From Candidatus Woesebacteria bacterium (GTDB lineage Bacteria > Patescibacteriota > Microgenomatia > UBA8517), in assembly GCA_013374835.1 (NCBI GenBank), contig CP055307.1:813304-877303 (forward strand): DNA of 64,000 nt, written 5' to 3'. Positions 42,454 to 61,188 of this stretch are shown piece after piece (position 1 is the first letter of the stretch; each line of letters starts with the position of its first letter). The position numbers were made by a program, and so were the translations under genes. The notes beneath the pieces are model-generated. The model searched no databases. It had not been told where the DNA came from and was given only the letters and a program-made list of their open reading frames with translations.

Positions 42454-42526
42454 GCCTGGGTAGCTCAGTGGTTAGAGCACATGTTTTGTAAACATGGGGT
42501 CGTGGGTTCAAATCCCACCCTAGGCT
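42454..42526 (+). tRNA. tRNA-Thr (anticodon TGT)
   Basis: Manual cloverleaf: acceptor GCCTGGG/CCTAGGC, anticodon stem CATGT/ACATG with loop TTTGTAA, T-arm GGGTTCAAATCCC. Confidence 0.9.
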
Positions 42527-42546
42527 CAAGATAAAAATAAAGATTT

Positions 42547-42630
42547 GCCAAGGTGACGGAGTGGACAAACGTAGCAGTCTGTAAAACTGCCGGTCGAAAG
42601 GCCTACCCAGGTTCGAATCCTGGCCTTGGC
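42547..42630 (+). tRNA. tRNA-Tyr (anticodon GTA), long variable arm
   Basis: Acceptor GCCAAGG/CCTTGGC, anticodon loop CTGTAAA, long variable arm, T-arm CAGGTTCGAATCCTG. Confidence 0.9.
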
Positions 42631-42641
42631 ACAACTTCCTC

Positions 42642-43814: not shown

Positions 43815-43844
43815 AGAAGGCGTTGTAATAGATTGATAGTCATT

Positions 43845-45044: not shown

Positions 45045-45132
45045 AACCTACTTAGCCGATTTTTTATTTATAAATATACATACCTTGTGATTCATTCTAA
45101 GTAAATTTTGAAATAAAGATCAAGGCATCTTT

Positions 45133-46053
45133 TTAATGTGTATCTCGCACCAGTTCCGGTTGAACAAAAGCGTTCATATAGGTTTCTATGAATTCTTCGT
45201 TTATAATTTTACCTTTTTTGTTTACTGTTAATTTTACTAACAATCCTTTTTTTGTTTCTTCGCTCCACATTTGATCAAAAACCAAATTACCAAGCGAGTA
45301 ATAAATTGGTTTTCCTTCTAGATACTCTATCTTTTGTACCCAGTGCGGGTGATGACCAGCAATTACGTCTGCCCCGCTCTCAACTATTTTTTTAGCCAAA
45401 TCTTTTTGATAAATTTCAGGCTCAGATTTATACTCCACTCCCCAGTGGATACCGACAACAAGAAAATCAACTTCTTTTTTTGATTCTGAAATCAGCTTAA
45501 AATCTAAATCTTTAGGAGTGTTTGTTAAAAAATCGAATCCGAGAAAACCTATTTTTATATCCCCTACTTTTATTGTTTCAAGATTATCAAAGCCAACAAA
45601 TTTTATCCCAGATTGGTCCAAAATTTTTTTTGTTTCTTCTATCCCTTCTTGTCCGTAATTACTCGCATGGTTGTTGGAAAGAGTTACAACGTCAACTCCA
45701 GCGAATAACAAACCTTCAATCATTTTTGGATCTGTGCAAAATTTAAATCCACTATCTGTTTTTGGACAACCGGATACGATAGGGTTTTCAAGATTAACAA
45801 AAAAAATATCGGCACTTTTTGTTAAATTTGCAATTTTTCTAAACGGATAAGCATAATCTCCTGTCTTAATACTTTCTATCATTACAGATCTAGCGAGCAT
45901 TACGTCCCCTCCGAGAAGGATTGTGGCCGTTAATTCCTGTTGAAGTTTAGACTTGGACAAAGGGGTTGTTTTAGGTACATTTTTATTAAGAAACAAGGAT
46001 GAAATTGCCAATACAAAAATAAAAATTACTAAAATTGAAGCTGCTATTTTCAT
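45133..46053 (-). CDS. capA: CapA/PgsA-family metallophosphatase (poly-gamma-glutamate capsule biosynthesis-like)
   Basis: N-terminal anchor and the CapA pattern ILLGGDVML...FVNLENP...GHHPHW. Confidence 0.75.
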   Translation of the reverse strand: MKIAASILVIFIFVLAISSLFLNKNVPKTTPLSKSKLQQELTATILLGGDVMLARSVMIESIKTGDYAYPFRKIANLTKSADIFFVNLENPIVSGCPKTDSGFKFCTDPKMIEGLLFAGVDVVTLSNNHASNYGQEGIEETKKILDQSGIKFVGFDNLETIKVGDIKIGFLGFDFLTNTPKDLDFKLISESKKEVDFLVVGIHWGVEYKSEPEIYQKDLAKKIVESGADVIAGHHPHWVQKIEYLEGKPIYYSLGNLVFDQMWSEETKKGLLVKLTVNKKGKIINEEFIETYMNAFVQPELVRDTH

Positions 46054-46105
46054 TTTCTTATTATAAAATATGACTTGTAATAACAGTTATTATTTGTAAA
46101 ACCTT

Positions 46106-46177
46106 GCCTGGGTAGCTCAGGGGTAGAGCACTTTCTTGGTAAGAAAGGGGTCGCGGGTTCAAATCCCGCCTCAGGCT
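46106..46177 (+). tRNA. tRNA-Thr (anticodon GGT)
   Basis: Acceptor GCCTGGG/CTCAGGC, anticodon stem CTTTC/GAAAG with loop TTGGTAA, T-arm GGGTTCAAATCCCGC. Confidence 0.9.
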
Positions 46178-46300
46178 CAGATGGCTAATTATCAAGAGGC
46201 TTCAATTTACAAAAAATATATGTTAAAATCTGAACTCATGGCAAAAAGGCTGTATAAAAAAAAGCCTTGAGCATTAAGCTTTTTGCTTTTAGATAACCAA

Positions 46301-46474
46301 AATGGCACAAAATAGGACAGATAAAATAGTTGCGCTTGTTTGTAGCGAGTGCAAGAGACAAAACTATATCACCACCCGAAATAAGAGGAATATGGAGGGG
46401 AAGCTTGTGCTTAAAAAGTACTGTAAATTCTGTAAAAAGACTACTGAGCATAAAGAATCTTCAAAGCTTAAGTA
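46301..46474 (+). CDS. rpmG: 50S ribosomal protein L33 (zinc-ribbon type)
   Basis: 57-aa ORF MAQNRTDKIVALVCSECKRQNYITTRNKRNMEGKLVLKKYCKFCKKTTEHKES, absent from the ORF track. It has the L33 CxxC...CxxC and TxKNKR pattern. Confidence 0.85.
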
Positions 46475-46477
46475 GAA

Positions 46478-46906
46478 ATGGTAGAATACAATCCCGATCA
46501 CCCGAATGCTAATATCCACGGAATGGTGGGAGAGGGCGGTGAACCAACCTGTGAAACCAAAAATGGTAATTTATGCACCGGCTGCTGCCACGCTCTTGAG
46601 GTAAGAGATACAAACTCTGGTTTTAAAAAGAATGCAGGAAAGCCGTGTGAGCATCAATTGTATGGACAGGGTTGTAGGTTTATATTGGAAAATACAAGTG
46701 GTAGACCTTCTATTTGCGAAGCGTATCACTGCTCTTCGGATATCTATAAACTAGCTACAAGCCCCGATCCCAAAATAAAATATGCCGCATTTCAAAGAAT
46801 TGCAATGTCTTTAACAGCTGCAAATTATAATGGAGAGATAACAGATAAGGAATATAATGATTTACTTAATCGGTTTAGTCCTCAACTATTTGTTCGGCAA
46901 GAATAG
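46478..46906 (+). CDS. hypothetical Cys-rich protein
   Basis: Starts 4 nt after rpmG. Has nine Cys in the first 90 residues (CETKNGNLCTGCCH...CEHQLYGQGC...CEAYHC). Confidence 0.5.
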   Translation: MVEYNPDHPNANIHGMVGEGGEPTCETKNGNLCTGCCHALEVRDTNSGFKKNAGKPCEHQLYGQGCRFILENTSGRPSICEAYHCSSDIYKLATSPDPKIKYAAFQRIAMSLTAANYNGEITDKEYNDLLNRFSPQLFVRQE

Positions 46907-47174
46907 TTATTAAAAAATTGTGCCTTTCTCTTGCGATTTCTTTTAATCTTTTGCTAAGTTCTTCTCTATCCACTTCAAATGGTGACACATCTAAATCTGC
47001 TATCTTGACAGCCAAGGCTACTGCATTAAACCTTTGACTCGGGTTAAGCTCTATTCCGTTGACGGTTAATTGCACTTGACTATTTATTCTATCTCCTAAA
47101 CTTTCTATACTCAATATCACGCACCTCCTTTTAATTAAAATTAGAAAAAATTTTTTACTTTTTACAAGCGGCAT
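46875..47174 (-). CDS. hypothetical small protein
   Basis: Only ORF covering 46907-47174. Overlaps the convergent gene by 32 nt. No motif. Confidence 0.3.
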   Translation of the reverse strand: MPLVKSKKFFLILIKRRCVILSIESLGDRINSQVQLTVNGIELNPSQRFNAVALAVKIADLDVSPFEVDREELSKRLKEIARERHNFLITILAEQIVED

Positions 47175-47318
47175 TTAATTGCTATAATGATTTTTGGGGT
47201 AATCACCCCCTTTGCTCCAGCCAAAAAATTTTGCATTAGTACTAAAGCAGCGCTTAATCAAAGGGCATGGTGAAAAACTAGACTGTCTGAAAGATTCGGG
47301 ATAAAATATATATTGTTT

Positions 47319-47389
47319 AGGTCTGTCGTTCAGTGGTAGGACCCGGGTCTCCAAAACCCGTGACGGGGGTTCGATTCCCTCCAGACCTG
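47319..47389 (+). tRNA. tRNA-Trp (anticodon CCA)
   Basis: Acceptor AGGTCTG/CAGACCT, anticodon stem CGGGT/ACCCG with loop CTCCAAA, T-arm GGGGGTTCGATTCCCTC, discriminator G. Found in the classic position upstream of secE-nusG. Confidence 0.9.
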
Positions 47390-47416
47390 CACCATGGAAT
47401 TGACTCGACATTAGTC

Positions 47417-47860
47417 ATGGCATCAGAAAATAATTTTCTACTAAATAATGAAAGAATAAATGCGTTTCCATTTAGCGCTCTTAGTCTGAGGCTCCAAGAG
47501 CTCGGTTTTCGTGAATTTGTGAAACCTAATCATAAAATAATAACAATACCCAAGGATATAAGTTGTGAATTACCTAAACCTGCTGATTTAGAAATAAACG
47601 GTATTTCAGTTTGTACCACAACAGAAGAGGAACTATCATCGCGTGTTATCACCCTTCCTTTAGATGCATGGAACCTTGATAATTTTGAGCCCAATGTATT
47701 TAGAAAAAATGGAATATATCAATTTAATTTTATAATAGAAGCCGAAAATTACTATCTTAAATTAATTTCTCATGATCCTTCTTTCCCAAGAGATTCACTT
47801 TGTTTTTCTATTAACAAACAGCAAATAATTCTTTTACCCATTGTGATATCCAACTATTAA
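47417..47860 (+). CDS. hypothetical protein
   Basis: The track ORF began with GTG inside the tRNA. The first ATG, at 47417 and downstream of the tRNA, was taken as the start. A 1-nt gap separates it from the next gene. Confidence 0.5.
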   Translation: MASENNFLLNNERINAFPFSALSLRLQELGFREFVKPNHKIITIPKDISCELPKPADLEINGISVCTTTEEELSSRVITLPLDAWNLDNFEPNVFRKNGIYQFNFIIEAENYYLKLISHDPSFPRDSLCFSINKQQIILLPIVISNY

Positions 47861-47861
47861 A

Positions 47862-48560
47862 ATGAGCATTTCCATAGAAAGAGCTGAAAATAATAAATTC
47901 GATTCTATTGATCGCGAAGAGGCAAGATGTATATTAGGAACCACCTCTTCAACCAATAGAATCGAATTTACTACATACGAAAATAAGGTAGTAATTAAAA
48001 AGGTATTTGCCCGAAAGGATGGAGAAAAATATGCATCAAATGAAGCATGCATACTAAGGCACCTTGCAGAAAAAACTTATAGAACTAATGTTGTTTTTCC
48101 TAGACTCGCTAAAGATGATATCATCTGGGACGAGGAAGGTAACCCCTGTTTGTATATAGCACCCGAACCTAAATATACTCCATTTTCAGCCGATAAGTCT
48201 ATCAAGCTTGAACTAGATGGCAAGACTGCACCCATAAAATTACAGAATTGTTTTAAAGCTATTTGTGTCATGCATACTAAGTATAGTGTACTTCATAATG
48301 ATCTTCATCTTGATAATATTGGTTTTTTACCACCTTATACTGGATCTTCCTTAATAAGAAACATGATTATTGACTTTGATCAATCAGAAAAATGCAATTA
48401 TTTGACCCCAAGAGAAATTACAAAAGATTTATTTATATTCACCAAAAACCTTTTAGCTATTTGCGAAGAAGAAAAAAGTGCAAAACAACGGATACGCGAA
48501 ATAGTTTTAATAACCTACCACGATTTAATTGATGTTGATACACTCTTTAATCAATTATAA
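47862..48560 (+). CDS. small protein-kinase-like fold protein (APH/ChoK/Kdo-kinase-like)
   Basis: VVIKKVF with a beta3-Lys candidate; catalytic-loop-like VLHNDLHLDNIGF (HxDLHxxN); metal-binding-like IIDFDQS. Confidence 0.55.
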   Translation: MSISIERAENNKFDSIDREEARCILGTTSSTNRIEFTTYENKVVIKKVFARKDGEKYASNEACILRHLAEKTYRTNVVFPRLAKDDIIWDEEGNPCLYIAPEPKYTPFSADKSIKLELDGKTAPIKLQNCFKAICVMHTKYSVLHNDLHLDNIGFLPPYTGSSLIRNMIIDFDQSEKCNYLTPREITKDLFIFTKNLLAICEEEKSAKQRIREIVLITYHDLIDVDTLFNQL

Positions 48561-48635
48561 ACAATACCACTATTTGACAGAGATCTTGAGATAATTCTAT
48601 TCTGAATGTAGAAAAATGTTTCTTAAAGCAAGGGG

Positions 48636-49034: not shown

Positions 49035-49082
49035 GCAAGAATTGTAGAATTGTAAGGTATTCATTAGTGATGCTTTTTGATA

Positions 49083-49613
49083 TTACTGTTTTATCTTTAG
49101 GATAGCTGGTTTTAGATTTATCCAAAGGTAATCGCGTTCGCCCATGCGCGCCGCGCTTTTTGCAAGTGGAATTATCTCAACTTCACTCTTATCACCTATT
49201 ACTTTAAATTTAAACGAAGCGAGCGTTTTTGCACCCTCAACAATCTCTCCATTAAAAGCCATTCCATAGCTTACTTTGATTAATCCGAGAGAATTATCTA
49301 TTTTTTCTTCGAGTTTGTTTGTTTTACTCCAGATTGTGCCTTCGCGAACAGACACCAGCTCGAGTGTTTTTGGATCAAAACTTATAGTAAATGCTACTGC
49401 GTGGAGAAAAGAGTTTTTTCCGACTCCCTTTTTAAGGGATATTGTAAGCGAATTGGTCTCCCCTTTTTGCCAGGCTTTTTCGTGCCCGCTAAAAACCGCA
49501 TCAAAGTCATTTTCTGAATCATTGTTTTTTGAAGAAAAAGTAAAATAAACGAAAATAGAAAATGCGATAATCGCTATTCCAATCAAAAAAATTTTTATCC
49601 GAATTTTTGGCAT
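49083..49613 (-). CDS. signal-anchored protein with cohesin-like beta-sandwich domain
   Basis: N-terminal anchor, then ...HAVAFTISFDPKTLELVSV...GLIKVSYGMAF...ASFKFKVIG, a cohesin-like sequence pattern. Confidence 0.45.
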   Translation of the reverse strand: MPKIRIKIFLIGIAIIAFSIFVYFTFSSKNNDSENDFDAVFSGHEKAWQKGETNSLTISLKKGVGKNSFLHAVAFTISFDPKTLELVSVREGTIWSKTNKLEEKIDNSLGLIKVSYGMAFNGEIVEGAKTLASFKFKVIGDKSEVEIIPLAKSAARMGERDYLWINLKPAILKIKQ

Positions 49614-50792
49614 TTATAAAGAAGTGCCGAAATTTTCAAAAAGTATTATATAATCCAGAAGGTTGATCTTGCCATCTGTATTCAGATCCGCATTGGGATA
49701 GGCTGACGATTCTTTACTAAAATATTCAAGAAGAAGTGTGTAGTCAAGAATATCAACTTTGCCGTCTCTATTTATATCGCCCGGAATAATTCCGCCCGGA
49801 GTCGGGCTCGGGCTTAATGAAGGACTGGGCGAGCCTGTAGCACCCGATACGAAAACTTCAGCCGGCAAGGCTTCTTTCAGCACGTTTTGTTGCCCTTGAC
49901 CGTAGGCTACTGCGATTGTCTGCTGATTTATAAACGATAAGCTGGACTGACCACTTTTTATCGCCGTGAAGGTGAAGGCTGCAATGTTCCCTTGCTCTTT
50001 GATATTGTGATTTTCAGGAGGAAGAATTTGAGTATAGTGGATTGTGCCCGCTTCGGTATTAACATTGGGGCCTACAATATCCGGATTTTGGAAGTAATCA
50101 AGCGCATCTATTTTTTCAAAGCGAAGTATATTGGGATCGTACTTTATAAACATTTCGACTCCTACCAAATCTACTCCCCCACTATTTACCCAGGCATAAA
50201 TTCTAACTTCGTCGCCCACATTGTATCTGGATTTATCAGGGCTTAAACGCAAAGATACAAACGTGTTATAAATATTTAGGCTTAAAAATGAATATTTTGT
50301 AATTACATTGACACTTCCTTCCCCTACTGCTACTGCCAATGTTTTTCCTTCGTTTAGACTAATATTTGTGTTTCCGGTTTTTAGGGTCTTAAAAGTAATT
50401 TGGGCTATAGTTCCACTTCCAGTAACAGGCGTATCGTTTGGCTTTACTATAAGCGTATAAAAAATCTCCCCCGATTCAATTCTTGGACCTATTACATCCG
50501 CCGACTGCATAAAAGCACCCTTTGAAACTACCGTAGGCTCAAGAAATTCCGGATCGAAATCAATATACAGCTCTGCTCCTACAACATTGTTTTCGCCTGT
50601 TTCCATGTTCACAGAGAGAGTGTATTCCTCGTTGAGCCTAACTGCTTTGTCACCTACCAAAGAAAGCTGTGTTGCCGGGGCCGTTTTTTTGGTGGTTATT
50701 TGAGTTTTTTGACTTAAGAAAACCGCTGAAACAATTCCTAAAATGATAAATAAGATAAAAATTATGAAAAGAGCCTTATTTCCAATCTTCAT
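49614..50792 (-). CDS. signal-anchored protein with two cohesin-like domains and a C-terminal type-I dockerin-like module
   Basis: Two roughly 140-aa repeats (AELYIDFDPEFLEP...; VEMFIKYDPNILRF...). C-terminal GDINRDGKVDILDYTLLLEYF and ADLNTDGKINLLDYIILFENFG match the DxNxDGxxxxxD calcium-loop repeats. Confidence 0.6.
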   Translation of the reverse strand: MKIGNKALFIIFILFIILGIVSAVFLSQKTQITTKKTAPATQLSLVGDKAVRLNEEYTLSVNMETGENNVVGAELYIDFDPEFLEPTVVSKGAFMQSADVIGPRIESGEIFYTLIVKPNDTPVTGSGTIAQITFKTLKTGNTNISLNEGKTLAVAVGEGSVNVITKYSFLSLNIYNTFVSLRLSPDKSRYNVGDEVRIYAWVNSGGVDLVGVEMFIKYDPNILRFEKIDALDYFQNPDIVGPNVNTEAGTIHYTQILPPENHNIKEQGNIAAFTFTAIKSGQSSLSFINQQTIAVAYGQGQQNVLKEALPAEVFVSGATGSPSPSLSPSPTPGGIIPGDINRDGKVDILDYTLLLEYFSKESSAYPNADLNTDGKINLLDYIILFENFGTSL

Positions 50793-51661: not shown

Positions 51662-51853
51662 ATGGTCGTCGTCAAGAAGAAAAAAGGAGAATCAGACGAA
51701 AAATTAATTGCGAGGTTTCGAAAAAAAGTAATTTCTTCCGGGATTATCCCAGAATTTAGGGACCGGGAAAGATACAAAAAAAAATCTGAAGAGCGTGCCG
51801 AGAGAAAAAAAAGAGTCAGATTTCAGATTGAGCTTGAGAAAAGAAAGAACTGA
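51662..51853 (+). CDS. rpsU: 30S ribosomal protein S21
   Basis: 63-aa basic protein with the S21-like pattern (KLIARFRKKV...IPEFRDRERYKKKSEERAERKKR). Confidence 0.8.
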   Translation: MVVVKKKKGESDEKLIARFRKKVISSGIIPEFRDRERYKKKSEERAERKKRVRFQIELEKRKN

Positions 51854-52520
51854 TAAACTGCTTTCTATGTTCTTTTGATGCGCCAAAGCGAATGATTGCT
51901 TCTTTATGGGATTTGGTACCGTATCCTTTGTTTTTATCCCATTCATAAATTTTTAGTGTTTTTTGTTTTGAAAGAAATGTCATTGTTGCGTCCCTTTCCA
52001 CTTTGGCAATTATTGATGCGGCAGCGATTGAGATTGATTTTTGATCTCCCTTGATAATGGGAGTTTGATTTTTTTTGCCTATTCCATTGATATAAGGAAC
52101 GTAAAAGGCATCAAGAAGTAAATGGATAATGGTTGATGACTGATGATTAATAGCGCGGCGGAAAGCTTTTTGGGTTGCTTTTACAATGCCTTTTTGGTTT
52201 ATTGTCTTAACGTCGGACTCTCCTATTGCCCACAAAAGAGCATTTTGCTTTATCCAGAGGCTTGCTTCTTCCCTTTTTCGCGGGGAAAGAAGCTTTGAAT
52301 CATTAATTTCCACTTCGAGCTTTGTTTTAGGCTTAAATACTACAAATCCTGCCATTACGGGACCTGCGAGAGCACCTCTACCTACCTCATCCGCCCCCCC
52401 AACTAAGAGCCCTTTTTCCCAAAATTTTGATTCGTAGCTAAAGTCGGGCAGACTTTTTCCTTTTCTTTTCCCATTCATCCTTGTAATTTTGAGGATAATA
52501 CTCAAAAATTGCGTTAGCAA
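51816..52520 (-). CDS. rnhB: ribonuclease HII
   Basis: GADEVGRGALAGPV catalytic DEVGRG motif. Confidence 0.85.
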   Translation of the reverse strand: MLTQFLSIILKITRMNGKRKGKSLPDFSYESKFWEKGLLVGGADEVGRGALAGPVMAGFVVFKPKTKLEVEINDSKLLSPRKREEASLWIKQNALLWAIGESDVKTINQKGIVKATQKAFRRAINHQSSTIIHLLLDAFYVPYINGIGKKNQTPIIKGDQKSISIAAASIIAKVERDATMTFLSKQKTLKIYEWDKNKGYGTKSHKEAIIRFGASKEHRKQFISSFFSQAQSEI

Positions 52521-52875
52521 GAGTTTCTATTATGCTTTTTACTTGAGCATCTTTCAAACTAGCTAAAGCTAAAGCTGCCATTATCTTTGGGTTTGTCAAA
52601 ACCATGTGTCTTGCTAAATCTTCGTGTGTTACTCCATTAATCTTCATTCGCAAACAGGCCGTTTGAAGCGTCACTGGGTTATCAGGCGCAAGATTAGTCC
52701 AATAATCTGCCTGATCCGCTGAGCTTACGTCTAAATTAAAAGCAATAGGAATAAAATGAGTATATATTTTTTTATACTCATCGCTGTTTATATCGATTGG
52801 ATTTATTTTTCTTTTTTTTTCTACCCGCCTAACAGCAGTACTTGCTCGATGCAGCCTCTCTGTTTTACTAGACAT
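52438..52875 (-). CDS. hypothetical protein
   Basis: ORF overlapping the rnhB start by about 80 nt. No motif. The real start may be internal. Confidence 0.35.
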   Translation of the reverse strand: MSSKTERLHRASTAVRRVEKKRKINPIDINSDEYKKIYTHFIPIAFNLDVSSADQADYWTNLAPDNPVTLQTACLRMKINGVTHEDLARHMVLTNPKIMAALALASLKDAQVKSIIETLANAIFEYYPQNYKDEWEKKRKKSARL

Positions 52876-52953
52876 ATTTTGATATATTATACCTTATTTG
52901 TTCTACCCTCTTTTTGTTGTGATTTTTACTTAAATGTTATAAAATAGCTAACT

Positions 52954-53139
52954 GTGAAAGCAGTGATTGGCTATTTAAAGGAAGTTAAGGGTGAGCTTGA
53001 CAGAGTTGATTGGCCAAAAAAGGATGAGGTTGTTAGGCTTACTGCCATAGTTTTTCTGGTTTCAGCTATTGTAGGCGCATATCTTGGTGGACTTGATATA
53101 GCCTTTACAAAATTGATTGAGCTAATAATTGCAAAATAA
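52954..53139 (+). CDS. secE: preprotein translocase subunit SecE
   Basis: 61-aa single-TM protein with ELxxVxWP ([11 protein letters not shown]) directly upstream of nusG. Confidence 0.85.
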
Positions 53140-53144
53140 GATAT

Positions 53145-53768
53145 ATGGATACAGATCAGAATAAAAAAGAAGAAAGCGTTTACGAAAAAGGCACGGGAAA
53201 GAAAAAAATTCCCGGACATATTGTAGTTAGCAAAACTTCGGATGAAAATGCCAAGTGGTATGTTGTGCACACTGCAAGCGGACATGAAGTAAGAGTTGCC
53301 GAAACTTTAAGGCAGAGAGTTGAATCTATGAATTTAAAAGAGCGGATTTTTGAACTTCTTGTGCCTACTCAGGATAGGGTGATAGTAAGGGGAGGCAAAA
53401 AGGCAAATATAAAGGAAAAAATTTTCCCGGGGTATTTACTTGTAAAAATGATATTGGATGATAATAGCTGGCTTGCTGTAAGGACAACTCCGGGGATAAC
53501 GGGATTTGTGGGAATTGGAAATCAGCCCACACCCCTTTCCGAAAGCGAGGTTTCAAATATCCAAAAGTTTATTTCCTCTCCCGCTCCGAGATTCAAAACG
53601 AGGCTTTCTGTGGGTGAAGCTGTCAAAATTACGGACGGGCCTTTTAGTGATTTTCTCGGGACAATAAACGAAGTTGATGAGGAAAAAGGAAAGGTAAAAG
53701 TGCTTATTTCTATTTTTGGAAGAGAGACCCCCGTTGAACTTGACTTTCTTCAGGTAACGAAGGTCTGA
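53145..53768 (+). CDS. nusG: transcription termination/antitermination factor NusG
   Basis: NGN domain [12 protein letters not shown] and C-terminal KOW ([18 protein letters not shown]). Confidence 0.9.
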
Positions 53769-53780
53769 ACTGTTAAAAAA

Positions 53781-54920
53781 TTATTTTTTAGTTAGAATTA
53801 ATACGTAGCTTCTTCTATCAAAAGTGTTTTTAATATTAATTCCAGGATGTAATATTTTATCAATTTCTGAATAATCCAATTTTTTGATCTCGAATCCTAG
53901 AAGTTTTGATATTTGTTCAATCGCTTCAGGATTGGAATTTTCTGGTGTTACTGTTTCTAGAATAATCAATCTACCCCCTGTTTTAAGAAGTATATAAGCT
54001 TTTTCTAGAATTGCCTCAGGATCAATTGTGTCTTTGTCTGTTAATCCGCGTTTTATAATATATCTTTGACCTGTTGAGCCAAAAACGTCCTTTGCCAGTA
54101 AAAGATCAACTGAGCCTGGTGATATTGTAGAATCATCAATATTCCTAAAATCAGCAGTTATTGGTATTTCGTTTTCATGGTAAGTTAATCTTGAAAGATC
54201 TTCTGCTCTTTCCGGATTTCTTTCTATAAGATACATGGTATCTCTATTCACATCGATAAATTCTGGATTCAAAAAAATAAGCGAATTATTTGTACCAGCG
54301 CCGATATCAACCGCTATTCTTCTTTGCCCGGACTCATCTTCTTTGCTTTTATCAACATCTGCTCTTTTTTTGAAAACAAATGCTATGTTATCTTCTCCCG
54401 TAGCCGCTTCTAAGCCTTCATCAAATATTTTGTTGACTTCGTAACCTTTATACTTTTCTTCAAGTTCAAAACCTGCAGCTATGTAACTTTTTTCAATTTC
54501 ATCGGCCAGTTTGTTTGAATCTTGATTGATGGGAATTGCTGTTTCAAGCACAACGACTTTGCCTCCCTGAGATGCAACCCGATAACTTTCAGATGCAATA
54601 GAACTAATATTAATATCAAAAAATTGTCCGCTAAAACTGCCATCAGGCCTTAGAGTGTTTAGTTCTCTTGAACTAAACAAGTCTTTTGAAAAAATTAGTT
54701 TTGTAGATTCATCACGTAAAGGCATTCTAGATCCGTCGGCTATAACTGGTATTAAGTTGGTATCTTTATAGTGTTTTGATAAACCTTCTAGCCAGATCGG
54801 GTCTTTTTCAAGAAGAACTGCTCTATCTGTTTTCCAATTGAATAAATCTAGCCGCAGGCTCTCGATATTTGACGTAACTCTGGGACCAATTTCTACAGCG
54901 AGAGTATCGGGGCTATCCAT
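53781..54920 (-). CDS. protein with two tandem class-I SAM-methyltransferase-like halves
   Basis: Half 1: LAVEIGPR, IADGSRMPL, GKVVVLE. Half 2: IAVDIGAGT, ITADFRNI, GGRLIILE. Confidence 0.5.
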   Translation of the reverse strand: MDSPDTLAVEIGPRVTSNIESLRLDLFNWKTDRAVLLEKDPIWLEGLSKHYKDTNLIPVIADGSRMPLRDESTKLIFSKDLFSSRELNTLRPDGSFSGQFFDINISSIASESYRVASQGGKVVVLETAIPINQDSNKLADEIEKSYIAAGFELEEKYKGYEVNKIFDEGLEAATGEDNIAFVFKKRADVDKSKEDESGQRRIAVDIGAGTNNSLIFLNPEFIDVNRDTMYLIERNPERAEDLSRLTYHENEIPITADFRNIDDSTISPGSVDLLLAKDVFGSTGQRYIIKRGLTDKDTIDPEAILEKAYILLKTGGRLIILETVTPENSNPEAIEQISKLLGFEIKKLDYSEIDKILHPGINIKNTFDRRSYVLILTKK

Positions 54921-54955
54921 TGTTAAATTATAATAAAATTCTTATATTACAAAAA

Positions 54956-55216
54956 TTAGGAGTTATCGATATTGGTATTTTCGTCATCAAATGATAGGTA
55001 ATATGCTTCAATTTGTGCTTCTATGTGTCTCATTCCCCTGCTTTGTACTCTTTCCTTGCCACAAGACATCGCTAGATCAGGTCTTTCAGAATCTTCCAAA
55101 CTACGAAGCTTTAGACCACAATCTTGTGGAAGATGTTTTTTTGATCTATCAGTTTCAATTTCTGCCGCAATTTGGCTTAACTCACTAGCAAGGGATCTAT
55201 ATGGTCTATCTATCAT
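54956..55216 (-). CDS. hypothetical small protein
   Basis: ORF only. Confidence 0.3.
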   Translation of the reverse strand: MIDRPYRSLASELSQIAAEIETDRSKKHLPQDCGLKLRSLEDSERPDLAMSCGKERVQSRGMRHIEAQIEAYYLSFDDENTNIDNS

Positions 55217-55249
55217 AAGAACGAGATTATAGTAGCATGTTTACTTAAA

Positions 55250-55492
55250 TTATCCAATAAATATTTCCGGTGGAGTGAAGCCATTTAGATACTCAAGCCT
55301 CCTTTTGATATCCAAACGAAGCTCGTCAATTTCTTCACAGCCTCGCGCATAGTTATCCAAAACAGATAGTATATAGGCAAGTTGGTCTTCGGGATAGTCC
55401 TGTATCAACTTCCTTAGATTACATCCACGACCTTCTGCTTGTTTGCACTCACCTTTTGCAACACAAGCATGAATACATCCTCGTTCGAGCAT
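55250..55492 (-). CDS. hypothetical small Cys-rich protein
   Basis: CIHACVAKGECKQAEGRGCNL...ARGCEE. Diverges from rplK. Confidence 0.4.
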   Translation of the reverse strand: MLERGCIHACVAKGECKQAEGRGCNLRKLIQDYPEDQLAYILSVLDNYARGCEEIDELRLDIKRRLEYLNGFTPPEIFIG

Positions 55493-55570
55493 AGCTCTAT
55501 TATATATCTTATAATACTAATCTTTACTTTTGACAAATAAATAGTAGAATATGAATACCTCTGGTTAAAT

Positions 55571-56005
55571 ATGGCCACAAAGAAAGTTTTAACTACAGTT
55601 AAGGTAAATCTAAAAGCTGGTGAAGCAACACCCGCTGCTCCACTAGGGCCTATTTTGGGACAACACGGCGTAGCCATTATGGACTTTGTCAAGGCTTATA
55701 ATGACAAAACAGCAGAAAAAAAGGGCCAGGTTATCCCGGCTGTTATTACTATTTATGAGGATAGAAGTTTTGATTTCGAGCTTAGGCTTGCTCCTGTTTC
55801 CGAGATGATTAAAAAGACATTAAAAATTGAAAAGGGGTCCGGGGCAACGCCAAGGGATATTGTAGGTACCTTAAGTGATTCGCAAGTTAATGAAATAGCA
55901 AGGGAAAAAATGGCGGATCTGAATACTGATAATATTGAAGCAGCGAAGCGAATTGTCGCCGGAACTGCACGGAGCATGGGGGTAAAAATCAATGGGAAAA
56001 ACTAA
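55571..56005 (+). CDS. rplK: 50S ribosomal protein L11
   Basis: KAGEATPAAPLGPILGQHGV and a KOW-like N-terminus. Confidence 0.9.
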   Translation: MATKKVLTTVKVNLKAGEATPAAPLGPILGQHGVAIMDFVKAYNDKTAEKKGQVIPAVITIYEDRSFDFELRLAPVSEMIKKTLKIEKGSGATPRDIVGTLSDSQVNEIAREKMADLNTDNIEAAKRIVAGTARSMGVKINGKN

Positions 56006-56702
56006 AACAGCAATAGTCGGAGAAACAGGAAAAGATTCAGATCTTAAAAATGCAGAACCTGTCCTTGAAAAACCAGAGGCAGAAGAAACCCAAAAATCTT
56101 ACAAAAGAGCCAAAAAGGAGCGAGGAAAAAGATATAAGGAAATGAAATCCAAAATAGATAAAAACAAGCTTTATTCAATTAAAGACGCTTTAAAGCTTAT
56201 TAAGGAAACACACCTTGCAAAGTTTGACGGTACAGTAGAGCTTCATATAAAAACAAAAAAAGAGGATATCCAGATCAATCTTGAATTACCGCATTCCACA
56301 GGAAAAGAAAAACGCATTGAATTAGCAAATGAATCAACAATAAAAAAACTTGAATCGGGAAAAATAGATTTTGATATACTTCTAGCAACGGCCGAATTTA
56401 TGCCTAAATTGGTGCCTTTTGCAAAAATTTTGGGTCCACGTGGACTTATGCCAAATCCCAAAAATAAAACCCTAATAAAAACCGAAAAAGAAGCAGAATC
56501 TTTTTCCGCAAAAAGCGTGACAATAAAGACGGAAAAGAAGCAGCCTGTTATCCACACCACAGTCGGCAAGCTTTCAATGGACCCAACTAAAATTGCTGAA
56601 AATATAAAGGCAATATTTGACGCTATCGGCGTTAAAAACATAGATCGCGCGCATGTTTGCGCCAGCATGTCTCCTTCTGTGAAGATTGATCTGAATAGTT
56701 GA
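55992..56702 (+). CDS. rplA: 50S ribosomal protein L1
   Basis: KFDGTVELHIK and ILGPRGLMPNPK motifs. Confidence 0.9.
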   Translation: MGKTKTAIVGETGKDSDLKNAEPVLEKPEAEETQKSYKRAKKERGKRYKEMKSKIDKNKLYSIKDALKLIKETHLAKFDGTVELHIKTKKEDIQINLELPHSTGKEKRIELANESTIKKLESGKIDFDILLATAEFMPKLVPFAKILGPRGLMPNPKNKTLIKTEKEAESFSAKSVTIKTEKKQPVIHTTVGKLSMDPTKIAENIKAIFDAIGVKNIDRAHVCASMSPSVKIDLNS

Positions 56703-56707
56703 GAAAT

Positions 56708-57241
56708 TCAACTGCTTCTTGCTCTTATTAGTTTCCTGATTAGCTGTCTGCAAAATAGCTCGGGAACATTAATACCCTTATCATTAAAATCTTTGGAAAG
56801 CAATTCTGCGGCTCTCATGTGAGATTCTCTTTGACTATTATCTAAAAAAACTACTTCCCCGCTCAATGATTCCCTTTCGCTACCCCGCTCATCAATGAAA
56901 TTTTTATGCCTGTCTCTAAGTATAGCCTCGTACTCTATGATTGCGGATATTGTTTCTTTAGAATAAAAATCGCTTTGGATATCAAAAACGAGTCGAAGTT
57001 TCTGAGAAAAAAAATCATCTAAAGTGGCCCTTGCTCTTTTGCTATTTAAAAATTGAGTTCTTTTCTGGTCTTTATCTAAATTCGGTTGAGGATTTCTGTC
57101 ATAATAAGTAAGTATGTCTTCTTTAAAGTATTCGCTTTCTTCAAATTTTTGCATAAACAAAACAGGGTCATTTGTAGTCTCTGGACCTCTTTCTTTTCCT
57201 TTATCAATTTCTAATTCTGTAGCATCGTCATTCATTTTCAA
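56708..57241 (-). CDS. hypothetical protein (paralogue of the next gene)
   Basis: N-terminus TNDPVLFMQKFEESEYFK resembles TDDPLLFVNKAVSNPEYKY of the upstream ORF. Sits between rplA and rplJ on the opposite strand. Confidence 0.45.
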   Translation of the reverse strand: MKMNDDATELEIDKGKERGPETTNDPVLFMQKFEESEYFKEDILTYYDRNPQPNLDKDQKRTQFLNSKRARATLDDFFSQKLRLVFDIQSDFYSKETISAIIEYEAILRDRHKNFIDERGSERESLSGEVVFLDNSQRESHMRAAELLSKDFNDKGINVPELFCRQLIRKLIRARSS

Positions 57242-57635
57242 ATCTTCTATTATTATATAAAATGCTCACCATCCCGCGTGCAAAATGTATATTAGGAGCA
57301 ATCTTAGCATCAACGAGCGCTCTTGCTGCTTTATTGTGGAGGCCCTTTTTGATGAAATTCATAAGATCCTTTTCTTGATCAATGGTGCCTTTTTTAGCAA
57401 AATCATCTGAGAACTCTGAATATGATCGAAATTTGTCCTTAAAATCATCAGGATATTTATTTTTATTATATAAAAGTCTTAAAACTGAGGCATTAAAATC
57501 TGTTACAAAAATCTCACTTGCCAAGCCAGACTCTGCATATTTATATTCTGGATTAGAAACAGCTTTATTTACAAATAACAATGGGTCATCTGTTTGCGAA
57601 ATATTACTTTTTATTTCACCGTTCTCTTTATTCAT
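57228..57635 (-). CDS. hypothetical protein (paralogue of 56708-57241)
   Basis: Overlaps its neighbours by 14 nt and 4 nt. Shares an N-terminal motif with the downstream ORF. Confidence 0.45.
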   Translation of the reverse strand: MNKENGEIKSNISQTDDPLLFVNKAVSNPEYKYAESGLASEIFVTDFNASVLRLLYNKNKYPDDFKDKFRSYSEFSDDFAKKGTIDQEKDLMNFIKKGLHNKAARALVDAKIAPNIHFARGMVSILYNNRRFENE

Positions 57636-58186
57636 GATCGCTTAGCTGTTATTATTTTAGATGTTACAAGCCCGAGAAAGATTTCTTTATTGAAAGGTGC
57701 CGGTAATACAAGTTGTTGCATTTCAATATTTGCAATTGTGGAAAGCCCTTCAAAAACAACATAAGGAATGTTTCTATCGGAAAAATAACTGTTGGGTTTT
57801 AGTATAAATCTTTGTTCTGGAAGTCCTTTTTTGTTCCCCGTGACCTGACTATGAAGTAAGAACTCTCCGCTACGAATTCTGGTTTGGAGAATCTTAAGAA
57901 CCTCAAAAAAATCACAGTGTTCCCTGATTCCATGTTCACAGTAAGCAGGTTCTCCTTTCTTTGCCTTGCGACATCTCAAAATTGCATAGTCAAGAAATTT
58001 TTTTCCAAAAGAATAATAGACATCCTCTACTCTTATGCAACAGCCGTCGATTTCTCCATTGCGATAATCTTCTAATAACGTAAGACTATTTTCCAATGTT
58101 AGTAAAGGATATCTGCTATCTATAATCTCAGTTAGTGTTGCAGGGATAGATTCGCGCTTACCTACCGAATTTTCAATCTGAGTCAT
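57632..58186 (-). CDS. hypothetical Cys/His-containing protein
   Basis: First gene of a three-gene minus-strand set. Contains GCCIRVED...CRKAKKGEPAYCEHGIREHC. Confidence 0.45.
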   Translation of the reverse strand: MTQIENSVGKRESIPATLTEIIDSRYPLLTLENSLTLLEDYRNGEIDGCCIRVEDVYYSFGKKFLDYAILRCRKAKKGEPAYCEHGIREHCDFFEVLKILQTRIRSGEFLLHSQVTGNKKGLPEQRFILKPNSYFSDRNIPYVVFEGLSTIANIEMQQLVLPAPFNKEIFLGLVTSKIITAKRS

Positions 58187-58264
58187 TTTTTCCTATAGTA
58201 GCTTAAATTTATAAATTGGTCAACTAAAAATAAACTTGTCTTTTGACTTTTTCGGGTTAGAAGT

Positions 58265-58350
58265 TTTATAATAAATTTATCCGAAGACAGGGTGCAGATA
58301 AATAAGTCACCCCGAGGAGCAAACTCGCGCTTCGGGCGCGTTTTTTTATT
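58265..58350 (+). promoter_or_regulatory. rplJ (L10) leader with terminator-like hairpin plus U-tract immediately before the start codon
   Basis: CGCGC-TTCG-GGCGCG at 58326-58340 followed by T7 at 58341-58347, 6 nt before the rplJ ATG. Upstream CAGGGTG/CACCCCG helix. Position matches L10-leader autoregulatory elements. Confidence 0.45.
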
Positions 58351-58353
58351 GAT

Positions 58354-58884
58354 ATGAAATCAGATACTAAAATTAAACCTGAAAAAAAGAAAAGGGTAGA
58401 AGAGCTTTCTGCTATCATGAAATCTGCTAAAGGCTTCGCATTGATAGACTACAGCTCTCTTGATGTAAAGTCTCAGCAGGAGCTCAAAAAAAGGCTCAAG
58501 AAAGCTGGGGCAAATATGCTTGTAGCTAAAAATACGCTCCTTAAAATTGCCGCAATAAATGCCGGATTTAAGGAAATCTCAGATAATGAAAATGCTTTAA
58601 CCAACCAAACTGCCTTGGTTTTTTCAAATAGCGATCCTGTTTCCCCTATTCAAATCGTAGGAAGATTTCAAACTGAAACCGAAATCACAGATTTTAAAGC
58701 TGGCATTATTGAGGGTATTTTTCAAGATAAAGAAAGCTTAATAAGAATATCAAAACTTCCGAGTAGAGATGAACTTTTGGCAAGAGTTGTCGGAGCAGTG
58801 TCTTCACCTTTGTATGGAATAACAGGAATTTTAAATGCAAACATGCAAAAGCTTGTTTGGATTTTAACCGAGGCAAGGGGGTGA
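58354..58884 (+). CDS. rplJ: 50S ribosomal protein L10
   Basis: Full-length L10 pattern (GANMLVAKNTLLK...). Confidence 0.9.
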   Translation: MKSDTKIKPEKKKRVEELSAIMKSAKGFALIDYSSLDVKSQQELKKRLKKAGANMLVAKNTLLKIAAINAGFKEISDNENALTNQTALVFSNSDPVSPIQIVGRFQTETEITDFKAGIIEGIFQDKESLIRISKLPSRDELLARVVGAVSSPLYGITGILNANMQKLVWILTEARG

Positions 58885-58889
58885 AAATT

Positions 58890-59315
58890 ATGGCAGCAGA
58901 AGATAAAGAGAATAAAAAAGTAAGCGAGAAGGTTGGAAAAATTGTCGATGAAATTAGCAAGCTTTCCGTGCTTGAGCTATCCGATCTTGTAAATGAATTG
59001 CAGGATAAACTCGGAGTTTCACCTGTTGCTATGACTGCTCCAGCTGTAACCTCTACGACAAACACAGGAGAGCCTGCCAGTGAATCGTCTTCTGACGAAG
59101 GCGGCAACAAAACCGTTGTTCTTACTAACGCAGGTGCAAACAAAATAGCTGTCATAAAGGCTATACGCGAGATCAATCAGAATCTTGGTCTTAAGGAAGC
59201 AAAAGATATGACAGAAGCGGTTCCAGCTGAGATATTGAAAGATGTTAAGGCAGAAGAGGCAAAAGAAGCAGCCGAAAAATTAAAAGCAGCTGGAGCAACA
59301 GTTGAATTGAAATAA
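58890..59315 (+). CDS. rplL: 50S ribosomal protein L7/L12
   Basis: Ala/Glu-rich hinge and C-terminal KAIREINQNLGLKEAKDMTEAVPAEILKDV...AGATVELK. The ATG at 58890 is preceded by AGGGGG. Confidence 0.9.
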   Translation: MAAEDKENKKVSEKVGKIVDEISKLSVLELSDLVNELQDKLGVSPVAMTAPAVTSTTNTGEPASESSSDEGGNKTVVLTNAGANKIAVIKAIREINQNLGLKEAKDMTEAVPAEILKDVKAEEAKEAAEKLKAAGATVELK

Positions 59316-59326
59316 AATAATTAAGA

Positions 59327-59360
59327 CAAAAAACCCCGCGACTATGTCGGGGTTTTTTGT
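59327..59360. terminator. bidirectional Rho-independent terminator between rplL and the convergent gene
   Basis: AAAAA-CCCCG-cgactatgt-CGGGG-TTTTTTG. The A-tract upstream and T-tract downstream allow use on both strands. Confidence 0.65.
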
Positions 59361-59404
59361 TGGAAAAAGATCTATTTAAATAATAAGGGATTCAGTTGCT
59401 AGGT

Positions 59405-60139
59405 CTATTGACTTGTCAAAAATTTAATAAGATCAAGAAGTTTGTCTGGAGGAAAACTTGCCAAGGTCGCCTCAGGAAGTTCTTCAAGCAGTAAAGCTGA
59501 GAAACTCTTGTCTATCTCAGCTAATCTTTCATTTTCTTTGACTGTCTTTTGATATCCTTTCCACAACCTTTCGTTAAATCGCATAATCACTTTATTTAAG
59601 TGCTCATCAGAAATATTAGGCAATGCTATTGTAAGTAAGTCAGCGGCAGCTTGTTCTAAACCCCTACCTCGCGTTTCCTCTTTTGGCTCACCACCAACAA
59701 CAATTGCACCCGGGTATTCAGACTCTTTTGCAGATTCATAGCACCATTTGATTAAAGCTTCAAATTTCTCTCTGCCAAGCGCTGCAAAAACTCCTGCTGC
59801 CCTATCTGTTTTGTCAGTCAATTCTGAGTCCCCAATCTGTTCAAGGTCTGCCCATCTTTCACCTTTTGGTCTTTGACGATCATAAACCCAAACCCCGACT
59901 ACTTGCCCATCTTGGTTCAATTTAACTCTTGCTCGAAATTGTGTGTGGGTAGTGAGCTTCTCTCTTTCTTTGTCACCAATCTCTAAATTAATACCAGCTT
60001 GGCGCAGAGCTTCTCTTAAAAATTCTCTTGTATCACCATCAAAAAAAACAGGCCCTAAATTATCTAAAGATTCTTCAATTCGTGAAATAATTTTTTCTCT
60101 AGGGTTATTGATTTGTTTTTGCTCTAGCTCATTGGTCAT
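59405..60139 (-). CDS. hypothetical acidic protein
   Basis: Clean 244-aa ORF with no motif. Locally GC-richer than its surroundings by eye. Confidence 0.5.
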   Translation of the reverse strand: MTNELEQKQINNPREKIISRIEESLDNLGPVFFDGDTREFLREALRQAGINLEIGDKEREKLTTHTQFRARVKLNQDGQVVGVWVYDRQRPKGERWADLEQIGDSELTDKTDRAAGVFAALGREKFEALIKWCYESAKESEYPGAIVVGGEPKEETRGRGLEQAAADLLTIALPNISDEHLNKVIMRFNERLWKGYQKTVKENERLAEIDKSFSALLLEELPEATLASFPPDKLLDLIKFLTSQ

Positions 60140-60294
60140 GTTGTTACATATTGTATCATATCGGCGCTATCTTATTATGTAATAACCATATGTATTACCT
60201 ACTAAGGTTTATTGTCTTTTGTTACAACGTTCTACAACAGTAAAACAGAAGAGTGATATGGTTGCAATAAATTATAGGATTTTCTCGATGAAGT

Positions 60295-61188
60295 TTAGCC
60301 TTTTACTATCTTTTCGAAATACTTAATAATCTCTAAAGCTACATTAACACCCGTGTATCTTTCAAAACCCGTAAACTGGGGTCCGGGGTTGATTTCTAAA
60401 ATATAGGGTTTGCCTGTCTCTTTATTAATCATAATGTCAACTCCGGCGATTTCTGTCTTCATTACTTCACTTGTTCTTTCGGCTATATTTCTGATTTCTG
60501 GGTATAAATTTAAATCAAATAATTCTCCCCTACCTCCTTGACTAATATTGCTTCTAAACTCTCCTTCACGAGTTGGTATGCGTTTCATTGCTCCAATTGC
60601 TTTATATCCAACTGTAAATACTCGAATATCTCCGTCGTTGGGAATAAATTCACGAATCACAAAAGAAGGTGAAACTCCTTCTAAATCTTTGGCAATTGTT
60701 TTAAGTTCCTCAAGATTATCTGCCTTAAAGACACCTTTTCCTTGTCTGCCTTCACTGACTTTGATAATTAAAGGGAAGCTAAAACTATTAATCACATAGT
60801 TAATGGATTTCGAATCAAAAAGTACTGCAGAATACGGAAATGGTAGAGAATTTTCAGTTTGCTTGAGATAATCAATTGCGGGAGTAAGATAAAAATTGTA
60901 ACTAGGATCTATAGCTTTATAATTAACTATTTTGGTCTTTCTGGTTTTATTTAAAAAAAGACAAGCTGTGTACCATTCCCATCTGCGTTTTCCTGCTGAC
61001 CAGAGGTAAATTAAATCATAATTCTTAAGGGTTTTTCCTCTAAGCGTCGGGTTAAAAAAATCTGACCCAGTTTCTATTATAAGCTCGTTTGTGTAGCAGC
61101 CTTCTACTTTGTGTCCTCGTTTTTCTCCTTCTTCCTGGAGGCGAATCAACTGATTGTTTTTAACTAAACCAACTATTAAAATCTTCAT
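60295..61188 (-). CDS. RimK-family ATP-grasp ligase (alpha-L-glutamate ligase-like) 3 of 3
   Basis: ATP-grasp core FPLIIKVSEGRQGKGVF, EFRSNISQGGRGELFDL, IAGVDIMINKETGKPYILEINPGPQF. Confidence 0.75.
   Translation of the reverse strand: MKILIVGLVKNNQLIRLQEEGEKRGHKVEGCYTNELIIETGSDFFNPTLRGKTLKNYDLIYLWSAGKRRWEWYTACLFLNKTRKTKIVNYKAIDPSYNFYLTPAIDYLKQTENSLPFPYSAVLFDSKSINYVINSFSFPLIIKVSEGRQGKGVFKADNLEELKTIAKDLEGVSPSFVIREFIPNDGDIRVFTVGYKAIGAMKRIPTREGEFRSNISQGGRGELFDLNLYPEIRNIAERTSEVMKTEIAGVDIMINKETGKPYILEINPGPQFTGFERYTGVNVALEIIKYFEKIVKG

Follow-up and report, generated by a model that had tools for sequence, protein, structure and literature searches.

Here we show that the conserved secE-nusG-rplKAJL gene string of a Candidatus Woesebacteria genome is split twice by sets of opposite-strand genes, and that this kind of split is the norm across the whole class Microgenomates, where it is confined to the two junctions between the housekeeping units of the string. 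The stretch analysed, referred to below as the window, comprises 64,000 nucleotides (nt) of contig CP055307.1 (assembly GCA_013374835.1, positions 813,304 to 877,303 of the forward strand). The data make it likely that the nusG-rplK, rplA-rplJ and post-rplL junctions are hot spots of accessory-gene turnover (flexible islets), located at operon boundaries throughout Microgenomates. As the pattern is the rule across the class, the split is real but conceptually ordinary, and it reveals no new molecular mechanism.

Gene layout and synteny across Microgenomates

The housekeeping genes secE-nusG, rplK-rplA and rplJ-rplL form three plus-strand units, which are parted by two minus-strand gene triplets, one spanning 53781-55492 (A379, A86 and A80) and the other 56708-58186 (B177, B135 and B184). 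The genes and units, with lengths in amino acids (aa), are as follows:

52954-53139, plus strand: secE (Pfam SecE, E = 2e-17)
53145-53768, plus strand: nusG (Pfam NusG, 2.5e-26, and KOW)
52954-53768, plus strand: unit 1, secE-nusG, conserved
53781-54920, minus strand: A379, in the nusG-rplK gap, tandem methyltransferase-like (MTase-like) protein
54956-55216, minus strand: A86, in the nusG-rplK gap, acidic 86-aa orphan
55250-55492, minus strand: A80, in the nusG-rplK gap, Cys-rich, 80 aa, divergent from rplK
55571-56005, plus strand: rplK (Pfam L11 N-terminal and C-terminal domains)
55992-56702, plus strand: rplA (Pfam L1)
55571-56702, plus strand: unit 2, rplK-rplA, conserved, with a 14-nt overlap
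56708-57241, minus strand: B177, in the rplA-rplJ gap, helical orphan (175 aa, ending at 57235, according to the gene caller)
57228-57635, minus strand: B135, in the rplA-rplJ gap, helical orphan
57632-58186, minus strand: B184, in the rplA-rplJ gap, 184-aa orphan, divergent from rplJ
58354-58884, plus strand: rplJ (Pfam L10; gene-caller coordinates)
58881-59315, plus strand: rplL (Pfam L12 N-terminal and C-terminal domains; gene-caller coordinates)
58354-59315, plus strand: unit 3, rplJ-rplL, conserved

Every gene named in the original prediction, which had been made from the sequence alone, is present at its coordinates, and the housekeeping identities are backed by Pfam matches that clearly surpass the thresholds. 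The observation of a split string is confirmed, and contigs of two different sequencing runs (SRR6186653 and SRR6825875) show an identical layout. Inside each of the three units, genes are spaced by 5 nt or overlap. The second insert is, as had been described, a minus-strand string of three genes, whose stop and start codons overlap, and the small protein noted earlier as Cys-rich is A80, with five Cys in its 80 aa. The stop codons at the two convergent junctions are 12 nt (nusG/A379) and 5 nt (rplA/B177) apart. Within the housekeeping products themselves, NusG (53145-53768) matches its domain model only from residue 37 onwards, so that ~35 extra residues seem to precede the domain at the N-terminus, and L1 (rplA, 55992-56702) has an apparent Lys/Glu-rich N-terminal extension of ~40 aa, the Pfam L1 match spanning residues 116-228 only.

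The conserved genes were located by tblastn in 80 species-representative genome loci and 80 metagenome loci, each of 20 kb. Among the species representatives, the nusG-rplK gap exceeds 300 bp in 41 of 74 loci and 1 kb in 26 of 74 (maximum 4.7 kb), while the rplA-rplJ gap exceeds 300 bp in 35 of 47 and 1 kb in 26 of 47 (maximum 7.8 kb); with the metagenome loci added, gaps above 300 bp are seen in 68/137 and 54/78 loci, respectively. Junctions inside the units never exceed 1 kb in the species representatives (secE-nusG 0/78, rplK-rplA 0/74, rplJ-rplL 0/46), and hypervariability is confined to the junctions between units. Collinear order is kept nonetheless, nusG being followed by rplK in 137 loci and rplA by rplJ in 78. 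The split had originally been called unusual, which holds in comparison with model bacteria but not within Microgenomates, where both inter-unit junctions are compact in only 3 of 46 species representatives. The antisense orientation of the inserts was likewise borne out for the window but is not general in relatives, whose open reading frames (ORFs) of at least 100 aa number 35 on the minus and 24 on the plus strand in the first gap, against 33 and 47, respectively, in the second.

All-against-all BLASTP left 131 of 219 gap ORFs as singletons, alongside some clade-level gap families; in Daviesbacteria-level loci, for example, two divergent genes of ~330 and 293 aa recur. Pfam searches with 121 gap proteins returned heterogeneous matches for a minority and none for most of them. 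The matches comprise mobile-element and toxin families (four IS200-type Y1 transposases, two PIN, Gp49), 23S_rRNA_IVP (four), DUF5674 (four), envelope functions (beta-lactamase-family, LPG-synthase TM, Wzy_C), surface modules (dockerin, Ig-like, fn3), and regulators or proteases (response regulators, one subtilase), a mix as expected for flexible-genome sites. Different genes, most of them orphans, therefore occupy both junctions in relatives, and since the same insertions are neither universal nor of housekeeping function there, the hot-spot reading stands.

Strain-level replacement and the probable autonomy of the units

A NusG-anchored scan of species-representative genomes assigns the window to Candidatus Woesebacteria (Patescibacteria, Microgenomates). 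The closest genome is UBA1430 (locus L003), with 99% identity in NusG and ~91% DNA identity in shared segments; as a metagenome scan with NusG returned no locus above 84% identity, it provides the sole strain-level comparison. BLASTN identity between the window and this genome extends without a break as far as the stop codons of conserved genes, beyond which it is lost. Three segments of the window are exactly replaced in UBA1430, the third of which lies downstream of rplL; they are listed here together with two further orphans that enter the comparison:

53765-55250: A379 and A86, replaced by a 257-aa minus-strand gene and a 209-aa plus-strand gene
56708-57634: B177 and B135, replaced by plus-strand genes of 180 and 83 aa
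59319-60289: C244, replaced by a 159-aa gene
59405-60139, minus strand: C244, 244-aa orphan between rplL and a RimK-like cluster, in a third variable slot
52438-52875, minus strand: u145, 145-aa orphan divergent from secE

No similarity could be detected between replacing and replaced proteins, and none of the replacing proteins has a Pfam match. As the synonymous divergence (dS) of the flanks between the window and UBA1430 is merely 0.2-0.4, these are cases of replacement and not of divergence. Non-homologous replacement at exact gene boundaries in UBA1430, together with the varied orphan content in relatives, supports the suggestion of the original prediction that accessory genes are inserted here at hot spots.

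Turnover did not affect all genes of an insert. The promoter-proximal minus-strand genes A80 and B184, and also u145, are kept in UBA1430, and the genes that were swapped are the distal ones that converge on the preceding unit. The A80 orthologue, in the same position, has 80% aa identity and a ratio of nonsynonymous to synonymous divergence (dN/dS) of 0.27, with corresponding values of 83% and 0.32 for B184 and of 81% and 0.39 for u145, against dN/dS of 0.01-0.16 for their neighbours. Identity to UBA1430 is mosaic around the variable slots: rimK1, next to C244, shows 61-77% and rimK2 89-95%, and dS is raised in rplJ and rplL. Importing DNA of a more distant donor by homologous recombination, a mechanism that we infer, would leave a mosaic of this kind.

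In Escherichia coli, secE-nusG, rplKA and rplJL-rpoBC have separate promoters, the last two units being under autoregulation by L1 and L10(L12)4. The window contains the following candidate control elements:

55523-55550, plus strand: promoter-like site of rplK (TTTACT-16-TAGAAT), consensus match only, 21 nt ahead of the start codon of rplK
58243-58355, plus strand: rplJ control region overall, a promoter-like site followed by an L10-leader-like RNA
58243-58272, plus strand: near-consensus promoter-like site of rplJ (TTGACT-18-TATAAT), from the promoter scan
58263-58355, plus strand: L10-leader-like RNA (Rfam RF00557, sub-threshold)
58326-58347, plus strand: GC-rich hairpin CGCGCTTCGGGCGCG and T-run ending the L10-leader-like RNA just before the rplJ start, from the terminator scan
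59328-59358, no strand assigned: strong bidirectional intrinsic-terminator-like hairpin A6-CCCCGCGACUAUGUCGGGG-U6 between rplL and C244, from folding

The L10-leader-like element aligns to RF00557 over the full model length with 34.4 bits (E = 0.0067), the gathering score of 44 not being reached. It is nevertheless conserved: in 50 of 79 loci (the 78 fetched loci and the window), the motif GA[CAT]AG-N4...N4'-CCGAGG precedes rplJ by 26-198 nt, whatever inserts lie farther upstream. Over all fetched DNA, only 52 of 5730 tiles contain the motif. Its 4-bp stem occurs in 19 distinct complementary versions, that is, with clear covariation. In view of a sub-threshold score despite these 19 compensatory stem variants, RF00557 seems to under-detect the element in Microgenomates. 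With its own promoter-like site and L10-leader-like element, rplJ would head a separate transcription unit, so that the inserts would lie between autonomous units and break no coupled one; both junctions are accordingly predicted to be boundaries between autonomous transcription units. Downstream of rplL, the fold of 59305-59410 (-25.2 kcal/mol, z = -3.3) is accompanied by weak terminator-type Rfam matches on both strands.

These features suggest how the junctions may have become hot spots. The string would consist of three autonomous expression units, secE-nusG, rplKA and rplJL, between which the junctions may be permissive: with genes tightly packed inside the units and each unit carrying its own control region, an insertion between units would break neither translational coupling nor autoregulation. 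The conserved nusG and ribosomal-protein flanks could serve as anchors for homologous recombination, through which whole-gene cassettes would be swapped between related strains, giving rise to non-homologous "alleles" at one site and to mosaic flanks. The six inserts would then be lineage-specific, cytoplasmic, host-adapted accessory genes, presumably dispensable at the level of the strain.

Other parts of the window also differ from UBA1430. After tRNA-Trp, at 47391-48572 (against 909-4292 of L003), two orphans of 175 and 232 aa give way to 3.4 kb in that genome, and at 49036-49062 (against 4754-5912 of L003) UBA1430 carries an additional 1.1 kb in front of the cohesin genes. The latter (49083-50792, minus strand) encode two adjacent cohesin-domain proteins, one of them also with a dockerin and both with N-terminal hydrophobic segments, which are predicted cellulosome-type modules in a Patescibacteria genome. 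Upstream of secE, at 42454-47390, tRNA-Thr(UGU)-tRNA-Tyr, tRNA-Thr(GGU) and tRNA-Trp are parted by orphan or poorly annotated genes, in an order that resembles the classical tRNA-tuf-secE arrangement; the distance from tRNA-Trp to secE ranges from 1.7 to 9.4 kb among relatives. The genes for S21 (51662-51853, plus strand) and RNase HII (51816-52520, minus strand) are convergent, their 3' ends overlapping by 38 nt. Beyond C244, the segment 60295-63995 (minus strand) contains three RimK-like ATP-grasp genes, the product of the third ending in a RimB-like domain at its C-terminus, and a gene for a 7TM-transglutaminase-type membrane protein; RimK-like matches come after rplL in many Woesebacteria loci.

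The inserted genes and alternative readings

Several lines of evidence indicate that the inserts are real genes in a real arrangement, with A86 the least secure of the six. Under a codon model trained on the housekeeping genes of the window, the annotated frame yields the best score for all six ORFs, at levels like those of nusG and the ribosomal-protein genes, and the codon usage of the inserts is host-like. For A86 the codon frame is the only support, and tblastn gave no match in 165 loci. Judged by sequence searches, the five inserts other than A379 have essentially no relatives anywhere. B177 found only itself in a deep homology search of 5.8e9 proteins, and for B184 a single remote relative, of 32% identity, emerged from 1.84e9 representatives, on a 1.3-kb contig without informative context; conserved alignment columns of B184 form the pattern C49...C83-x-H85...H90. 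Among the flanking orphans, u145 has weak homologues at the same position in loci L011 and L101, and C244 has one homologue, at 36% identity, beside RimK-like genes in L018. Searches of the six insert proteins, C244 and u145 against Pfam, NCBIfam, PHROGs and PADLOC returned nothing beyond a generic MTase signal of A379, and IMG/VR scans of A379 and B135 returned no viral relatives. With phmmer, no significant paralogy was detected among the window orphans, or between them and the replacement genes of UBA1430. The common T(N/D)DP(V/L)LF start of B177 and B135 was considered as a sign of paralogy and rejected as not significant (E = 0.03-0.06). A reading of A80 and the MTase-like gene in terms of ribosomally synthesised and post-translationally modified peptides was also rejected: there is no leader/core architecture and no set of modifying enzymes, and the MTase-like gene is absent where A80 is kept (UBA1430).

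A379 consists of two fused units of ~190 aa, each resembling class I S-adenosylmethionine (SAM) methyltransferases; the two halves can each be aligned with one and the same set of single-unit homologues (~190 aa), and the tandem label given to this 379-aa protein from the outset was apt. The signature of class I SAM methyltransferases is a Gly-rich motif I and an acidic residue ending strand beta-2. By our reading of the alignment, both are present in the C-terminal unit (VDIGAGTN ... YLIERN). In the N-terminal unit, motif I is degenerate (VEIGPRVT), its second Gly being lost, and this unit is probably inactive. Weak matches to Methyltransf_11 and Methyltransf_31 fall in residues 204-339; the former reaches 22.1 bits against a cut-off of 21.2, yet no single stretch passes, and the latter, with 21.4 bits, stays under its cut-off of 27. 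Neither PrmA (PF06325) nor MTS (PF05175) was matched at E <= 0.1 in Pfam, or appeared among the NCBIfam matches. A PDB profile search gave BH2331 ("unknown conserved protein") as the best match (E = 4.7e-4), named SAM methyltransferases following only at E > 0.3, and PADLOC gave a match to mad2, a MADS defence protein, in its MTase domain only (1.2e-9).

Structure prediction, which had been proposed for all the unknown proteins, was of limited use for A379 and failed for B184, whose AlphaFold2 (AF2) model is unusable at a predicted local distance difference test (pLDDT) value of 38. The AF2 model of A379, with pLDDT 59, is itself usable only for the description as MTase-like with two units. 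Foldseek returned 351 matches to it at E <= 0.001; nearly all of the top 50 are methyltransferases, with TM scores of only 0.22-0.28, and the first matches to this low-confidence model are the tandem-MTase proteins PMT, RlmG and RsmC.

The MTase-like family has fewer than 10 known members, all from Woesebacteria, and searches of 5.8e9 proteins with A379 alone or with a four-sequence profile of the unit returned only the query itself and Woesebacteria homologues. Of the 45 Woesebacteria-level loci for which enough sequence is available, 6 contain the unit, without exception as a minus-strand gene within the nusG-rplK gap; in four loci, 5-19 nt separate it from the nusG stop. A379 is absent from the closest relative. 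In locus L113 (2639-4186, minus strand), two adjacent unfused MTase-like genes of 198 and 186 aa occupy this gap, and the pair looks like an unfused counterpart of the A379 tandem. A gene for an MNT-type nucleotidyltransferase adjoins the two. Neither A80 nor A86 is related to the small genes that neighbour the MTase-like gene in relatives. Because the MTase-like gene recurs at one site in 6 of 45 loci, it is probably an old, patchily retained resident of the nusG-rplK gap and not a recent arrival.

The possibility that the split is an artefact, produced by chimeric metagenome assembly or by spurious ORFs in AT-rich spacer DNA, we regard as very improbable. Five of the six proteins lack a family match, and short ORFs such as A86 (86 aa) would, by estimate, be unsurprising in DNA of 36% G+C, but the layout is identical in two sequencing runs, and A379 was found as well on a contig of 901,682 bp for which NCBI is among the listed sources. 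The ORFs are moreover long (135-379 aa) and each scores best in its own frame, A80 and B184 have dN/dS near 0.3, and homologues of A379 sit at the same site in other genomes. The inserts could instead be remnants of mobile elements (a prophage, an integrative element, integron-like cassettes, or toxin-antitoxin and defence modules) that entered site-specifically at operon boundaries. Such an origin would be in keeping with the IS200-type transposases, PIN and Gp49-type toxins and MNT-type nucleotidyltransferase held by the same gaps in relatives, with the match of A379 to the MTase domain of mad2 (1.2e-9), and with the variable segment that begins right after tRNA-Trp, a classical integration target. 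It is made unlikely, however, by the lack of direct or inverted flanking repeats above chance in 52800-60400, of any integrase- or recombinase-type family match among the window inserts (Pfam, PADLOC, PHROGs, NCBIfam), of significant PHROGs matches, and of IMG/VR relatives of A379 and B135. The sole PADLOC match concerns a generic MTase domain, with no partner component of any defence system among the inserts, whose codon usage matches that of the host, and the boundaries of replacement coincide with the stop codons of flanking genes and not with att-like sites.

Another explanation would make the inserts long-established partners of the machinery of translation and transcription, specific to the lineage and in a position that is itself functional: the MTase-like protein would modify L11, NusG or rRNA, after the model of prmA or of the rsmC-type gene inside the rpoBC operon of Bacilli, and the small proteins encoded divergently to rplK and rplJ would act as co-regulated factors associated with the ribosome. 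The restriction of the MTase-like unit to the minus strand of the nusG-rplK gap, at 5-19 nt from the nusG stop in four loci, argues in this direction, as do the tandem-fold rRNA methyltransferases RsmC and RlmG among the best Foldseek matches, the location of rsmC between rplL and rpoB in Bacilli (PMC8046335), and the short divergent promoter region that A80, B184 and u145 (dN/dS 0.27-0.39) each share with a conserved unit. We still judge it rather unlikely, given that the MTase-like gene is present in just 6 of 45 Woesebacteria-level loci and absent from UBA1430, that Pfam yields no PrmA or MTS match and only near-threshold generic ones to Methyltransf_11/31, that the structural likeness comes from a model with pLDDT 59 and TM scores of 0.22-0.28, that B184 has one remote relative in 1.84e9 proteins, and that unrelated genes occupy the same sites in relatives. 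In a narrower form, the family could represent a new lineage-specific modifier of L11, NusG or the L11-binding rRNA region, placed for its function, which we consider improbable; if it were so, A80, B184 and the strain-variable small proteins would be ribosome-associated accessory factors and not random cargo.

The interpretation of the junctions as turnover hot spots at operon boundaries, which we prefer, has several observations weighing against it in turn. UBA1430 is the one genome close enough to show replacement events, and recombination is deduced from exact boundaries and mosaic identity in that single comparison. The excess of turnover was measured against neighbouring intra-unit junctions only (0 of 46-78 loci above 1 kb). 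Since A80, B184 and u145 are kept under purifying selection, part of each insert is not freely exchangeable. Neither the terminator scan nor folding found a terminator-like hairpin at the convergent nusG/A379 and rplA/B177 junctions, in contrast to rplL/C244; the ends of these units are thus putative, and transcriptional collision or antisense read-through would be expected. Finally, the recurrence of the MTase-like family in 6 of 45 loci fits residence with repeated loss as well as it fits turnover.

Relation to known systems

As the Microgenomates loci examined are routinely open at both internal operon boundaries, contiguity of rplKAJL should not be assumed for Patescibacteria in marker-gene or synteny methods. 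The data also point to where the small, dense genomes of the Candidate Phyla Radiation (CPR) keep strain-specific genes, namely between autonomous housekeeping units, with conserved flanks as anchors. Primers or read-pairs in nusG/rplK and rplA/rplJ could serve for surveys of how cassettes vary at strain level within populations of Woesebacteria.

Two components of the window have known counterparts. RsmC, RlmG and the phosphoethanolamine N-methyltransferases likewise combine two class I MTase-like units in a single polypeptide, the SAM motif of the N-terminal one being degenerate. A379 differs from them in lacking Pfam MTS membership, in that the likeness derives from a low-confidence model, and in belonging to a family of fewer than 10 members restricted to Woesebacteria. 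The element upstream of rplJ shares with the L10 leader (RF00557) its position 5' of rplJ after a promoter-like site, an internal-loop motif with a covarying stem, and an end formed by a hairpin and T-run; it differs in its score (34.4 bits against a gathering score of 44), and binding of L10(L12)4 is here putative.

Flexible islets and integration hot spots are fixed sites between core genes that hold non-homologous gene sets in related genomes. The junctions described here are similar in their content of orphan, toxin, transposase and surface or envelope genes, and in the mosaic divergence of their flanks, but differ from typical islets in lying inside a highly conserved gene string and in that the two main sites have no tRNA or integrase. 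In Mycobacterium tuberculosis, presumably, about ten genes including mmaA4-mmaA1 lie between rplA and rplJ, the first of them being minus-strand SAM-dependent methyltransferases, although a literature search did not confirm this arrangement.

Genomic islands are reported to be common in Patescibacteria (PMC12455944). Insertions between concatenated translation operons, followed by relaxed synteny at the opened junction, have been described in Gammaproteobacteria and Bacilli (PMC6735719, PMC8046335). These cases resemble the present one in that genes enter at operon boundaries and not within coupled units, and in that an opened boundary relaxes further. The insertions in those groups are, however, rare and clade-defining and consist of recognisable genes (tusDCB, bfd-bfr, nrdHEF), whereas here both junctions are filled in most species of the class, mostly by orphans that differ even at ~91% identity. 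In Bradyrhizobium diazoefficiens and Actinomyces israelii, rplKA lies apart from rplJL (bioRxiv 10.1101/2025.04.14.645983); the same rplA-rplJ junction is opened there by several genes, with a fixed content of known functions, whereas the content in the window is strain-variable and the nusG-rplK junction is open as well. What is specific to the present case is thus the class-wide frequency of the split, the occupation of both junctions, the orphan content of the inserts, and their turnover at ~91% genome identity.

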